Of a DNA stretch of 64,000 nt, positions 6,670 through 16,242 are shown in pieces (positions within the stretch are counted from its first letter, which is position 1; every line of letters starts with the position of its first letter). The position numbers were made by a program, and so were the translations under genes. Under the pieces are notes generated by a model. That model was not told the DNA's origin and made no database searches. It saw only the letters and a program-made list of their open reading frames with translations. The DNA comes from an uncultured Alphaproteobacteria bacterium (lineage in GTDB: Bacteria > Pseudomonadota > Alphaproteobacteria > HIMB59), in assembly GCA_902557145.1 (NCBI GenBank), contig CACDYZ010000008.1, positions 1,580 to 65,579 of the forward strand. The letters run 5' to 3'.

Positions 6670-7914
6670 TTGGATAATCAAAAAAACTTCCTTTTCGTTA
6701 ATTCCTCCGACTTTCTAATTATACGAGCTATTGCTTTTGGCGGTCAGGCCGCTACTTTATCAATTACACAGTATTTTTTCGAAATTTCAAAAGTAGTTGC
6801 AACTGCCTCGTGGATTATAGCCTTTGTTTTGATGGCCAGCATTATCCTAGGTTTTTACTTAAACAAAGGTGATAAAATTATTTCAGAAAAACAAGTCTTC
6901 ATATTTTTATGTTTTGATATCATTCAAATTTCGAGTTTAATTGCCTTGAACGGTGGATACACTAATCCTTTCATATTTATCATCTTGGCCCCTATTGCTA
7001 TTGCAGCATCATACCTAGCGATAGAAAGAATAATTATTATTTTAAGTTTGGCGTTAGTTTGCTTTGCCTTAATATTTAATTTTTTTATTACTCTTCCTCC
7101 ATCTGTTCACCCAAATATTAATTTTACATATAGTTTAGCTATCATGATCTCTCTTTTTATAAGCAGCATCTTTTTAGTTTTCTATCTTTATTACTTTTCT
7201 CTAAACTACAAAAACACTCAAAAAGCATATGAATTAGCAAGCAAGCAACTTCAAAATGAAAAAGAACTTTTAAAAGTAGGTGGGTTAGCGGCAGCAGCTG
7301 TTCATGAACTAGGGACACCATTGAATACAATAAACCTAATTGTTGGAGATTTTAACCAAGATAAAAAGCTAAAAGATGATTATGGAAAAGACATTAAAAC
7401 GTTATTGTTAGAATTAGATAGATGTAAGGCAATACTTAAAGAACTTTCAACTAATCCAGAGTCAAAAGAACTCTCCTCTGAAATAACTAATATGTCATTA
7501 GATGCATATACACAATCTTTGTGCGAACAATTCTCGAATAATTATCGCGCAGTAAATTTAGATTATAGATCGGATGAAAATTCTAAAAATATTAATATTA
7601 AAATTACACCTGAGCTTAATATCGCTATGAATAATATAATCAAAAATGCAATTAGTTTTGCGTATAGAGAAATATTGATAATTTCAGAAACTTCAACAAA
7701 TAAATATTCCATCAAAATCCGTGATGACGGCCCAGGTTTTGATAAAAAGTTTATAGCTAATTTTGGAAAACCATTCTATTCTAGCAGGGCTGAAAAAGGG
7801 GTAAATATGGGCCTTGGTTTATTCATAACAAAACAAATGATTGAAAATCTAAATGGTGAAATATCAGTACAAAGTAATAATGGAGCAGAAGTAACTTTAA
7901 CATGGCAGATTTAG
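6670..7914 (+). CDS. regB: Redox sensor histidine kinase RegB/PrrB/ActS
   Basis: Multi-pass TM N-terminus with quinone-binding GGYTNPF, H-box AAAAVHELGTPL, conserved redox Cys in DRCK, DDGPGF and GLGLF. Confidence 0.92.
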   Translation: MDNQKNFLFVNSSDFLIIRAIAFGGQAATLSITQYFFEISKVVATASWIIAFVLMASIILGFYLNKGDKIISEKQVFIFLCFDIIQISSLIALNGGYTNPFIFIILAPIAIAASYLAIERIIIILSLALVCFALIFNFFITLPPSVHPNINFTYSLAIMISLFISSIFLVFYLYYFSLNYKNTQKAYELASKQLQNEKELLKVGGLAAAAVHELGTPLNTINLIVGDFNQDKKLKDDYGKDIKTLLLELDRCKAILKELSTNPESKELSSEITNMSLDAYTQSLCEQFSNNYRAVNLDYRSDENSKNINIKITPELNIAMNNIIKNAISFAYREILIISETSTNKYSIKIRDDGPGFDKKFIANFGKPFYSSRAEKGVNMGLGLFITKQMIENLNGEISVQSNNGAEVTLTWQI

Positions 7915-12156: not shown

Positions 12157-12396
12157 TTAGAAATCATCATCAGGTTTATTAAAGGCCATCCATTTTTCTA
12201 ATTCATGGTATCCACCAATTTTTTCACCATTGATAATTATCTGTGGGAAAGTCTTAGCAGTTGGAAATATTTCAAAAAATTGTTCTCTACTATAATCTTG
12301 ATTTAACATTAATATTTCAGGATCATGGGTTGCTAAGGCTGACTTAGCCATAGTACAAAAAACACAGTTATCTTTGCTATATATCTTTACTTCCAC
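12157..12396 (-). CDS. Glutaredoxin (probable RNR reductant)
   Basis: IYSK..CVFC, TFPQI, IGGY; directly abuts nrdB. Confidence 0.9.
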   Translation of the reverse strand: MEVKIYSKDNCVFCTMAKSALATHDPEILMLNQDYSREQFFEIFPTAKTFPQIIINGEKIGGYHELEKWMAFNKPDDDF

Positions 12397-13386
12397 TTAG
12401 AAAGACTCGTCAAATGACAAGGAGCGATCTGTTGGCCGCTGATATTCACTAACCCTTTTTTCAAAAAAGTTAGTCACATTTTGAACATCTAGAGCTCTCA
12501 TAAAGTCAAATGGATTTTCTGTATTAAATACTCTATCAAATCCAAAAAGATCAGCTATACGATCCGATACTGCTTCGATATACATACACATCATCTCTTT
12601 GTTCATTCCAATAAGATCAACGGGTAGTGCGTCAGTGACAAATTCTTTTTCAAATTCAACTGCTTCTCTAACAATTTCCTCAAACTCTGATTGATTCACA
12701 GAGCCTGGTATTAAATCCATTGATTTAATATCTTCATCTGACAATGTTCCCTTATTAAACTTTTCACTTAATGTCTTAAACATTAAAGCAGAGAAACTAA
12801 AATGCATCCCCTCATCTCTTGCAATCCAATCATTAGAAAGTGCTAGGCCTGGAAGCAGACCTCTTTTTCTAAAGTAATAAATGGCACAAAAAGATCCTGC
12901 AAAAAATAACCCCTCAACCAAACCAAAAGCTATTAATCGCATAAGTAAATTTTGATTTCCATTAAGCCATTTTGAAACCCATTGTGCTTTTTTATTAATA
13001 CAGGGAACATTTTGAATTGCAGAGAACAACTTATCTTTTTCTGACGGGTCCTCGACGTAGGCTTCTATTTGTAAACCATACATTTCAGCATGAATAGATT
13101 CATTTAGCATCTGCATGGTAATAAATAATCGGGACTCAGGAATTAAAATTTCATTATAAAATCTTGAAGCTAAGTTCTCGTTTATCATAGCCTCTGAATT
13201 TGCAAAGAATGCAAGCACATGTTTAATAAAGTGTATTTCTCCCTCACCTAGTGTTTTTAGATCTCTTAAATCATCTTGGAGTGAAACTTCCTCGGGTGTC
13301 CAAAATGCTTGTACGTGCTGTTTATAACGATCGAAAATTTCTTGATGTTGAATAGGGAAAATTGATTTGCATCCTTTAGATATCAT
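12397..13386 (-). CDS. nrdB: Ribonucleotide reductase class I beta subunit, eukaryote-like sequence type
   Basis: FWTPEEV, FFANSEAMINENL, ESIHAEMY, VEGLFF, RDEGMH, TNFFEKRVSEYQ. Confidence 0.96.
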   Translation of the reverse strand: MISKGCKSIFPIQHQEIFDRYKQHVQAFWTPEEVSLQDDLRDLKTLGEGEIHFIKHVLAFFANSEAMINENLASRFYNEILIPESRLFITMQMLNESIHAEMYGLQIEAYVEDPSEKDKLFSAIQNVPCINKKAQWVSKWLNGNQNLLMRLIAFGLVEGLFFAGSFCAIYYFRKRGLLPGLALSNDWIARDEGMHFSFSALMFKTLSEKFNKGTLSDEDIKSMDLIPGSVNQSEFEEIVREAVEFEKEFVTDALPVDLIGMNKEMMCMYIEAVSDRIADLFGFDRVFNTENPFDFMRALDVQNVTNFFEKRVSEYQRPTDRSLSFDESF

Positions 13387-13419: not shown

Positions 13420-16170
13420 TTACGCACTACATGTTACGCAATCTTCTGGTTCATTAGATTGCGCCTCTTTCACATAAGACTCTTTTGCTTTTTTTTCAGA
13501 AGACACGGTTACTTTAACTGCGTCTACAGCTGATCGGCTTCTCAGGTAATACATGCCTGTTTTCAAGCCTTTTTTCCATGCATACATATGCATAGAGTTC
13601 ACTTTTCCAAAAGTAGGGGTTGCCAACCATAAGTTCATGGATTGGGTTTGATCGATAAATGGTGCTCTGTCCGCTGCCATATCAATGACTGTTTTTTGAG
13701 ATGTTTCCCAAACAGTCTTGTAAACATCTTTAAGGTCTTCTGGGAAACCCTCAATATTCTGAACGGAGCCATTTTCTAATATAATTTGATCGCGTAATTC
13801 TTTACTCCAAAGGTTCCTTTTCATCAATTCTTTTACAAGGTGACGATTTACTAATAAGAATTCTCCAGAGAGAGTTTGTCTTTTATAAATATTTGATGTT
13901 TGCACTTGAAAGGTTTCTGTATTACCCAAGATGATACCAGTTGAAGCTGTTGGCATACATGCTGTGGTCAAGGAATTACGCACCCCATGTTTTTGAATCT
14001 TCTCCATTAGGCCTTTCCAATCCCACATACTTGATGGTTTAACGCCCCACAGATCAAATTGAAATTGCCCCTCAGAAAGAGGAGAGCCCTTAAAAGTAGA
14101 ATAGGGTCCTTTGTCAGCTGCTAGCTCCATTGATGCTTCTAAGGCACCAAAGTAGACTGTTTCAAATATTTGCTTATTAATAATCTGTGCTTGAACAGAG
14201 TCATATGCAATATTCATTTTGAAATAAACATCAGCTAGACCTTGTATGCCAAGACCAATTGGTCGATGACGACTATTTGAGTTCTCTGTCTTATTTGTAG
14301 GATAAAAATTAATATCTATAACTTGATCCAAGTTTTTTGTAGCTAGTTTCGCAACTTGGTATAAGTTTTGGTAATCAAATTTACTTTCATCTGTAACAAA
14401 TTTAGGTAATGCAATTGATGCTAAGTTACAAACAGCTGTCTCATCTTTTTCAGAGTATTCAACAATTTCAGCACAAAGATTAGACGATTTAATTACCCCA
14501 ATATTCTTTTGATTAGATTTTTTATTTACGGCATCTTTGTAAAGCATATACGGCTGACCAGTTTCAATTTGTGCTTCAATGATCTTTGACATCAAGGCTC
14601 TTGCCTTAATTCTTTTAAGATCAGGCATTTCATTTTCGTATTTGGTGTATAGGTCTACAAACTCTTTCCCATAAGTGTCAGATAATCCAGGACATTCATG
14701 TTCACTCATTAATGTCCAATCAGCATCTTCTTCAACTCTTTCCATAAATAAATCTGGTATCCAAAGAGCATAAAATAAATCTCTGGCTCTGAATTCTTCA
14801 GCACCTGTGTTTTTCCTAAGCTCTAAAAATGACTCAATATCAGCATGCCATGGCTCTAAATAGACTGCAAAAGAGCCCTTTCTCTTGCCACCTCCTTGGT
14901 CAACAGATCTTGCGGTTTCGTTAAAAATTTTAAGAAATGGAATTAATCCATTCGATTTACCATTTGTTGATTTAATACGACTCCCACCACCCCTAATGTT
15001 ATGGGCGTGAAGTCCAATACCACCCGCTGTTTTGGAAATCAAAGCACAGTCTTTCACTGTATTAAAAATCCCTTCAATAGAATCATCTTCCATTCCAATT
15101 AAAAAGCAAGATGATAACTGTTGCATTTTTAATCCACTATTGAAAAGAGTAGGTGTTGCATGAGTGTAGAAACCTTGAGATAAACTGTCATATGTTTTTT
15201 TAACCTGATAAAAATCAAACTTATCACCCGAAACACACAGAGCTACTCTCATCCATAAATCCTGAGGTCTCTCCGCAGTTTTGTTATTTGATTGGAGAAG
15301 ATAAGCTCTAAATAAGGTAGTTAATGCAAAATAGTCAAAATAATAATCTCGATCATAATCGATAATTTTTTCTATTTCTTCAGCATTAGCTTTTACCTTT
15401 TCATAATACTCATCGCGCAACAAACCATCTTCGTAAAGATTTTTTGTTGCAATAATAAAACCAGGTGTTTCTTTGTGTAATGCATTAGCTTTAATTCTAC
15501 CAGCCAAATAAGAGTAGTCAGGATGTTCCACTGTCAAAGCAGCGGCTGTCTCAGCTAAGTAAGTATCAATTTCGTTTGTTGTGATACCATCGTATAAACC
15601 TTGGATAGCTTTTTGTGCAATCGTAATGGGGTCGATCTCTAATCCGTTTGATAAAATAGATATACGGTTTGTAATTTTTTCTAAAGAAATGTCTTCTTTG
15701 TTACCATCCCTTTTGGTAACTGCCATTGTTGAAACTTTGGCACCTATTTGTTCATTAAGTTGAGCGGTTTTATAACGTTGGTTTGCTCTTTGCTCTCTAT
15801 AAAGAACATAAGCACGGGCAACTTTGTGATGTTCCCCTCTCATTAATGCTAATTCAACTTGATCTTGAATATCTTCAATATGAATCATATCACCGTTAGC
15901 AATGCGTCTTGTCAGAGCTGCTGTTACAGTCTCAGTAAGATCAGAAACACTTTTGTCAATTTGCTTACTATCTCGAAGGTCGGTTTGCGCTAAAAAAGCC
16001 TTTCTGATGGCATTAGCGATTTTATCTGACTTAAAGGGTGTAATGGAGCCGTCTCGTCGAACAACGCTCAAACTTAACAAGTTTATTTCTTCATTTTGCT
16101 TATTTATTACGGTGTTTTTTGTTGAAATTTCTAATGATTCTGCGTTATTTGTTTCCATTCTACCTACCAA
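13420..16170 (-). CDS. nrdA: Ribonucleotide reductase class I alpha subunit with two ATP cones (start may be the ATG at 16158)
   Basis: QLSSCF, SSNLCAEI, AVCNLAS, MYYLRS and C-terminal CVTCSA; cones begin at VVRRDG and VTKRDG. Confidence 0.98.
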   Translation of the reverse strand: MVGRMETNNAESLEISTKNTVINKQNEEINLLSLSVVRRDGSITPFKSDKIANAIRKAFLAQTDLRDSKQIDKSVSDLTETVTAALTRRIANGDMIHIEDIQDQVELALMRGEHHKVARAYVLYREQRANQRYKTAQLNEQIGAKVSTMAVTKRDGNKEDISLEKITNRISILSNGLEIDPITIAQKAIQGLYDGITTNEIDTYLAETAAALTVEHPDYSYLAGRIKANALHKETPGFIIATKNLYEDGLLRDEYYEKVKANAEEIEKIIDYDRDYYFDYFALTTLFRAYLLQSNNKTAERPQDLWMRVALCVSGDKFDFYQVKKTYDSLSQGFYTHATPTLFNSGLKMQQLSSCFLIGMEDDSIEGIFNTVKDCALISKTAGGIGLHAHNIRGGGSRIKSTNGKSNGLIPFLKIFNETARSVDQGGGKRKGSFAVYLEPWHADIESFLELRKNTGAEEFRARDLFYALWIPDLFMERVEEDADWTLMSEHECPGLSDTYGKEFVDLYTKYENEMPDLKRIKARALMSKIIEAQIETGQPYMLYKDAVNKKSNQKNIGVIKSSNLCAEIVEYSEKDETAVCNLASIALPKFVTDESKFDYQNLYQVAKLATKNLDQVIDINFYPTNKTENSNSRHRPIGLGIQGLADVYFKMNIAYDSVQAQIINKQIFETVYFGALEASMELAADKGPYSTFKGSPLSEGQFQFDLWGVKPSSMWDWKGLMEKIQKHGVRNSLTTACMPTASTGIILGNTETFQVQTSNIYKRQTLSGEFLLVNRHLVKELMKRNLWSKELRDQIILENGSVQNIEGFPEDLKDVYKTVWETSQKTVIDMAADRAPFIDQTQSMNLWLATPTFGKVNSMHMYAWKKGLKTGMYYLRSRSAVDAVKVTVSSEKKAKESYVKEAQSNEPEDCVTCSA

Positions 16171-16194: not shown

Positions 16195-16242
16195 GCACTA
16201 GATGTAGTGTTTATTGCCTAGTGACTATACAATTTATAGATA
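16195..16242. promoter_or_regulatory. Tandem NrdR boxes upstream of nrdA
   Basis: 16195-16210 reads ACACTACATCTAGTGC on the minus strand, close to the NrdR consensus acaCwAtATaTwGtg. A weaker copy, ATACAATTTATAGATA (16227-16242), is offset by 32 bp, the canonical tandem spacing. Confidence 0.8.

Follow-up and report, generated by a model that had tools for sequence, protein, structure and literature searches.

Subclasses of class I ribonucleotide reductase (RNR) are defined by their radical cofactor, and classes Ic, Id and Ie have each changed views on the synthesis of DNA precursors under iron scarcity. The locus discussed here raises the question of cofactor again. It lies in a window of 64,000 nucleotides, the whole stretch of DNA that was analysed, from an uncultured alphaproteobacterium, and includes an nrdB gene whose product is of eukaryote type in its scaffold and has Glu where class Ia proteins have Asp as the first metal ligand. 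The question is whether this is a conventional di-iron protein with an unusual ligand, or an R2 protein that has moved to another metal.

The nrdB gene and its relation to the known R2 classes

The window operon has the gene order nrdA-nrdB-grx. Its genes, and the residues of NrdB that are discussed below, are as follows, with coordinates for the window.

13420..16170, minus strand: nrdA, directly upstream of nrdB; it encodes the catalytic subunit that partners NrdB and has two ATP cones at its N-terminus.
12397..13386, minus strand: nrdB (protein P0001, 329 aa), radical-generating subunit of class I RNR, eukaryote-type scaffold, Glu-ligand clade; identified from the ORF and PF00268.
12157..12396, minus strand: glutaredoxin gene, encoding 79 aa with a CVFC motif; the GTG start codon is immediately next to the stop codon of nrdB.
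13192..13194, minus strand: GAG codon of Glu65, metal ligand 1, which is Asp in class Ia and Ib and is invariant as Glu in the clade.
13102..13104, minus strand: codon of Asn95, the second-sphere residue before ligand 2, which is Met/Ile/Val in NrdBe (Table 4, PMC6370689).
13090..13101, minus strand: E96-S-I-H99, ligands 2 and 3 by sequence comparison.
13078..13080, minus strand: TAT codon of Tyr103, the radical-site tyrosine, with a class Ia-like hydrophobic pocket (F162, F166, I188).
12913..12915, minus strand: codon of Glu158, ligand 4 (VEG); the Glu-clade-specific Gly155 is one helical turn before it.
12802..12813, minus strand: E192-G-M-H195, ligands 5 and 6 (DEGMH), with the clade-specific F196 and S197 directly after.

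NrdB is a class I RNR beta subunit, that is a ferritin-like R2 protein. It has a Pfam/NCBIfam profile match to PF00268 at 296 bits, and in a phmmer search of all PDB chains the top match is mouse R2 (E 1.4e-88). The top fold matches of its AlphaFold2 model (pLDDT 87.9, pTM 0.84) are all R2 proteins, human and mouse R2 being the best (rmsd 1.7-1.9 A, TM ~0.9 by target) with Chlamydia class Ic ranking next. The six metal ligands, on four helices, are E65, E96, H99, E158, E192 and H195, and the residues of the radical pathway (W29, Y103, D191 and the C-terminal Y315) are kept. Around Glu65 the translation of ORF 12397-13386 has the motif FFANSEAMINENL, and in the phmmer alignment helix B aligns gap-free to mouse R2 with E65 falling on the mouse Asp of FFAASDGIVNENL. 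A preliminary description of this DNA had placed Glu at ligand 1 (E65, GAG 13194-13192) of a eukaryote-type R2 with the other ligands and the tyrosine intact. The gap-free alignment agrees with that placing, all five remaining ligands and Tyr103 are present, and mouse and human R2 are indeed the closest proteins by both sequence and fold. We also considered whether some other Asp could be ligand 1 and rejected this, as helix B is gap-free in the alignment and contains no Asp.

With regard to the remainder of the operon, NrdA (916 aa) has two ATP-cone matches before an RRM1-like core. The listed nrdA start is a TTG at 16170, and an ATG at 16158 may be the real start. NrdR-box-like sequences are present upstream of nrdA (16195-16240), for example acactacatctagtgc at 16210-16195. 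The glutaredoxin is the probable reductant of NrdA. NrdB itself has an insertion of ~19 residues after the ligand-5/6 helix (residues 209-231, window 12694-12762, minus strand), which is common to the alphaproteobacterial Glu-type proteins and the Asp-type protein P0127; the Vibrio Glu type and eukaryotic R2 lack it.

The closest relatives among the known classes are the eukaryotic class Ia R2 proteins (mouse and human RRM2, p53R2 and yeast Rnr2; NrdBe in RNRdb), with ~45-50% identity to NrdB. They share with it the helix-B motif frame, the ExxH motifs, the radical Tyr with its pocket and the C-terminal Tyr, and in both cases the alpha subunit is RRM1-like. However NrdBe is tabulated with Asp at ligand 1 (Table 4, PMC6370689), the Asp that hydrogen bonds to the radical Tyr in class Ia, whereas the window NrdB has Glu. 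It also differs in having Asn95 and not Met, Ile or Val in the second sphere before ligand 2, in the clade-specific G155, F196 and S197, in the insertion described above and in its bacterial host, and the system differs in having a glutaredoxin gene in the operon and an extra ATP cone in alpha.

Class Ib (NrdF) is characterised by the NrdI activase and Asp at ligand 1, and neither was found for the window protein. Class Ic R2, as in Chlamydia trachomatis with its Mn(IV)/Fe(III) cofactor, has Glu at ligand 1 in common with the window NrdB and is the second-best group of solved proteins (E 1e-28; TM ~0.75). However class Ic (NrdBzc) combines Phe at the radical site with Glu in the second sphere, whereas the window NrdB retains Tyr103 and has Asn in the second sphere.

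The combination of Tyr and Glu is the stated signature of class Id, a class that lacks NrdI and uses superoxide in assembling its Mn2(III/IV) cofactor (PMC8463856, PMC6754362). The class Id proteins (NrdBi, from Flavobacterium johnsoniae, Leeuwenhoekiella blandensis and Facklamia ignava) share with the window NrdB this pairing, the E E H E E H ligand set, the absence of NrdI nearby and a frequent marine occurrence. However they belong to another phylogenetic subclass and differ in each of several hallmarks. Class Id has Lys at Glu+4 (in the studied subgroup) and Trp at Glu+7 (strictly conserved in NrdBi) (PMC6754362), where the window NrdB has N69 and L72; it has Thr at ligand 5 minus 4, which keeps the Tyr ~7 A from Mn1 (PMC8463856), where the window NrdB has Ile188, invariant, as the Tyr partner; and all class Id alpha subunits are minimal proteins with no ATP cone (PMC8463856), unlike the two-cone NrdA. 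Solved class Id chains are missing from both the 60 best sequence matches and the 50 top fold matches of NrdB, and the model has an unbroken helix through residues 48-79, which is a further point against class Id. With no Lys, Trp or Thr hallmark, a two-cone alpha subunit and no close similarity in sequence or fold, membership of class Id was rejected. The preliminary description had cited class Id as a case in which the Tyr is kept. This is so, but the class Id Tyr does not carry the radical (PMC8463856), and retention of Tyr103 thus does not in itself show that a tyrosyl radical is formed.

Conservation and origin of the Glu ligand

Glu at ligand 1 is invariant in 120 close homologues, all of which carry ANSEAMINENL, and in 75 further relatives obtained by a protein search with the Vibrio sequence. 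Of 80 species-level genome loci 76 have it, the remaining 4 being unmatched by the search pattern. By contrast, Asp is found at this position in all 146 of the other eukaryote-type cluster representatives, these being the best 150 representatives of 50%-identity clusters less the fragments of the Glu clade. A sequencing error or a pseudogene was rejected as explanation, given that Glu is invariant in ~200 relatives and that the gene is the sole RNR.

Maximum-likelihood analysis unites all 39 Glu tips in a single clade (support 0.999). The sisters of this clade are Asp-type sequences (0.92), followed by P0127, which also has Asp. As the Glu sequences form a single clade nested among Asp-type sequences, the change from Asp to Glu is, on the evidence of the tree, a single event that took place inside the eukaryote-type scaffold and independently of class Ic and class Id. 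The Asp-type sisters (~55-60% identity) read FFAQSDGIVNENL in the ligand 1 segment, where the Vibrio Glu type reads FFAQSEGMINENL. These sisters came from the protein search with the Vibrio sequence, which gave three Asp-type sequences, at ~60% identity, with this reading.

Both Asp-type sister lineages are on phage-like contigs, one a JGI contig (L148, 2486-5929) and the other a Logan contig (L037), and one NrdA among these contigs is 1147 aa long and contains an intein. Pelagiphage RNRs were considered separately, both as a possible source and as possible members of the Glu type, and were rejected, as their beta subunit reads Asp with Tyr at +7 and their alpha subunit is minimal. In Pelagibacter phages HTVC309P and HTVC048P (L038 and L039) alpha is ~582-585 aa and beta only ~26% identical to the window NrdB; from its sequence this beta subunit looks NrdBk-like.

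The change at Glu65 does not stand alone. In a sample of 50 sequences E65, G155, F196 and S197 separate the Glu from the Asp types perfectly, and N95 is invariant within the Glu clade. W29, Y103, D191 and Y315 are also invariant in the clade, as are the residues of the Tyr pocket (F162, F166, I188). Judged by these alignments the metal site is remodelled rather than merely point-mutated, as residues flanking three other ligands have changed too, and the fixation of Glu together with changes beside three other ligands indicates a change of function and not drift. The literature searched contained no description of an NrdBe clade with a Glu ligand, and this branch of the eukaryote-type (NrdBe-like) R2 proteins is apparently distinct and undescribed.

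Two proposals of the preliminary description can be taken up here. An independent origin of the Glu on a eukaryote-like scaffold is upheld by the position of the single clade among Asp types and by the absence of class Id hallmarks. The proposed link to life in an iron-poor ocean needs to be corrected, as the change is a single older event that is not private to one oligotrophic lineage: descendants with Glu are also found in Vibrionaceae associated with fish, on a plasmid and on chromosome 2, and in a fish pathogen of the Bacteroidota.

Distribution and predicted regulation of the Glu-type operon

One RNR large subunit and one R2 are encoded in the window genome (1.19 Mb, 84% complete). Four near-complete relatives with the same NrdB likewise have a single alpha and a single beta gene for RNR; NrdI matches over the cut-off are absent from these four, and NrdD was found neither in them nor in the window genome. 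The lack of nrdI in the operon, already remarked on in the preliminary description, extends to the whole window genome at its 84% completeness, and there is no PF07972 (NrdI) match over the cut-off in 10 genomes. As the only RNR of the window genome and of its near-complete relatives the enzyme must be functional.

The Glu-type protein was found in 94 of 101 sampled genomes of the window organism's order, and among 301 sampled Alphaproteobacteria it is present only in the same order and one other family. There was no close homologue at E <= 1e-60 in the 400 Gammaproteobacteria sampled, and the Vibrionaceae copies were located only through the plasmid collection. The tblastn search of plasmid records gave relatives at 62% identity in Vibrio campbellii and on a plasmid of Photobacterium damselae subsp. 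piscicida, both with the nrdA-nrdB-grx order of the window operon and both reading FFAQSEGMINENL at ligand 1. The V. campbellii copy is on a record of the size of chromosome 2. The protein search with the Vibrio sequence added Glu-type proteins in V. harveyi, V. tapetis, Photobacterium kasasachensis and Ichthyobacterium seriolicida, and in more alphaproteobacterial MAGs.

The P. damselae subsp. piscicida plasmid (136 kb; L130, NZ_CP061863.1) has the Glu-type operon flanked by IS1, IS91 and DDE transposase genes, which points to a mobile operon. Ichthyobacterium seriolicida (L136, AP014564.1), a Bacteroidota fish pathogen with a 1.9-Mb genome, has the Glu-type proteins as its only R2 and RNR alpha, with a thioredoxin gene in place of the glutaredoxin gene downstream.

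In the Vibrionaceae the Glu-type operon is patchy, being present in 5 of 201 sampled genomes. The genomes that have it also encode class Ia NrdAB proteins of the E. coli type, whose ligand 1 is Asp, and NrdI was not found in them. A predicted Fur box (TGATAATnATTATCA, 0-1 mismatch) is present 61-77 bp upstream of nrdA in V. campbellii, V. tapetis, L134, G1180, G1356 and G1338, six loci in all, and it is conserved in an alignment of upstream regions; the Fur-like site of the P. damselae plasmid copy is weaker, with 3 mismatches. As a negative control, the housekeeping class Ia nrdA was examined in three of these genomes, and the ~900 bp before it held no Fur-like site with 3 or fewer mismatches. 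In V. tapetis (L132/L133, 699-12874) the Glu-type operon lies between a catalase gene, which precedes it, and sufABCDSE, which follows directly, and there is a perfect predicted Fur box (TGATAATAATTATCA) at 7305-7319, before sufA.

Repression of a second aerobic RNR by Fur is known from the Mn-dependent NrdHIEF of E. coli, whereas enzymes that require iron are normally turned down when iron is scarce. From these predicted sites the Vibrio Glu-type operons appear to be switched on by iron starvation. The E. coli NrdHIEF (class Ib) is likewise a second aerobic RNR and an iron-starvation back-up, but the Glu-type operon differs from it in having neither NrdI nor NrdH and in having Glu and not Asp at ligand 1, and the two sequence families are unrelated. 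The roles also differ, as E. coli NrdHIEF is a back-up whereas the Glu type is the only RNR of the window genome.

Fur control of the window operon itself is unsupported: there is one site with 3 mismatches, and such matches are at chance level (16 observed vs 15.7 expected). This is as expected if the enzyme is the only RNR. Metal uptake genes were looked at as a weak check on consistency. A search of five alphaproteobacterial genomes of the Glu type gave no MntH, and their only binding protein of the ZnuA family scores as Zn-type. In the window genome the ZnuA-family gene is split across two contig ends (G000 C7:5-490 and C16:25-255), and this looks more like a break in the assembly than like a pseudogene.

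Candidate cofactors and their consequences

Where a natural class I beta subunit has Glu at ligand 1, the metal in that site is Mn (PMC8463856). We infer for the Glu clade a cofactor that is iron-sparing and probably contains Mn, and would put the probability of this at about 0.5. The main argument for an iron-sparing cofactor is that the Vibrionaceae operon, as a second aerobic RNR with a predicted Fur box, resembles the NrdHIEF pattern. Indirect support also comes from the adjoining suf genes in V. tapetis and from the lack of a Fur-like site before the housekeeping nrdA in the three genomes examined. The remodelled site would then assemble, without NrdI, a cofactor (Mn2 or Mn/Fe) whose site 1 holds Mn. 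The oxidising equivalent would pass by the conserved route of W29, Y103 and Y315 to NrdA, which would be re-reduced by the operon glutaredoxin. The oxidant would presumably be O2 or superoxide, and Tyr103 may carry a stable radical.

We suggest tentatively that the Glu clade could be a new subclass of class I RNR, one that is NrdI-independent and Mn-dependent (Mn2 or Mn/Fe), with a eukaryote-type scaffold and a class Ia-like Tyr, serving as sole RNR in streamlined marine alphaproteobacteria and as an iron-starvation back-up in some Vibrionaceae.

The alternative that survives best is an ordinary di-iron tyrosyl-radical class Ia enzyme, which has a substantial, if less than even, chance of being correct. 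Glu would then be a tolerated variant, fixed in the lineage, that gives a four-carboxylate site like that of MMO with no role for Mn, and it would perhaps tune O2 activation or iron affinity. NrdB is after all closest to the di-iron mouse and human R2 proteins in both sequence and fold, the invariance of Y103, W29, D191, Y315 and the hydrophobic pocket (F162, F166, I188) is what such an enzyme would have, and no Mn importer was recognised in the five Glu-type alphaproteobacterial genomes. There is also the D84E variant of E. coli R2, which reportedly binds di-iron, reacts with O2 and still forms a tyrosyl radical; if this protein works with di-iron, Glu alone is no proof of Mn. In this variant too ligand 1 is changed from Asp to Glu and the Tyr is retained, but it is a laboratory point mutant of the distant NrdBg subclass (the engineered protein appears as reference 70 of PMC8927127), whereas the Glu of the window clade is natural, ancient and accompanied by other changes in the site. 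A merely tolerated Glu is also difficult to reconcile with the Asp of all 146 other eukaryote-type representatives and with fixation alongside changes beside three other ligands. Regulation is a further point, as a second RNR that is predicted to be Fur-repressed and is adjacent to suf would be a paradox for an enzyme that requires iron.

It is improbable that the enzyme is metal-promiscuous, taking Fe2 or Mn-containing clusters according to supply. Such flexibility might be looked for in the sole RNR of streamlined genomes that face variable trace metals, and class Ib enzymes are partly active with either metal, but class Id is inactive with Fe (PMC6754362). A true class Id enzyme, with a Mn2(III/IV) metal-centred oxidant made from superoxide scavenged through an open cavity lined with Lys, and a Tyr that is never oxidised, is least to be expected, as the Tyr/Glu pairing, the lack of NrdI and the marine hosts are outweighed by the differences in residues, alpha subunit and fold given above.

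If an iron-sparing, Mn-containing cofactor is indeed used by the Glu clade, it would give a second, independent Tyr/Glu signature, and this on the scaffold closest to the human enzyme. It would also account for the mobile, Fur-controlled second RNR in some fish-associated bacteria. The natural pairs of Asp and Glu sisters (~55-60% identity) are a clean system for study of the selection of Mn over Fe in R2 proteins. Single 90% clusters of the Glu type hold from hundreds to 1,783 member sequences, and this type is the one RNR present in very abundant ocean bacteria. If these use Mn, the iron cost of DNA synthesis in much of the ocean bacterioplankton would be lower than has been assumed.
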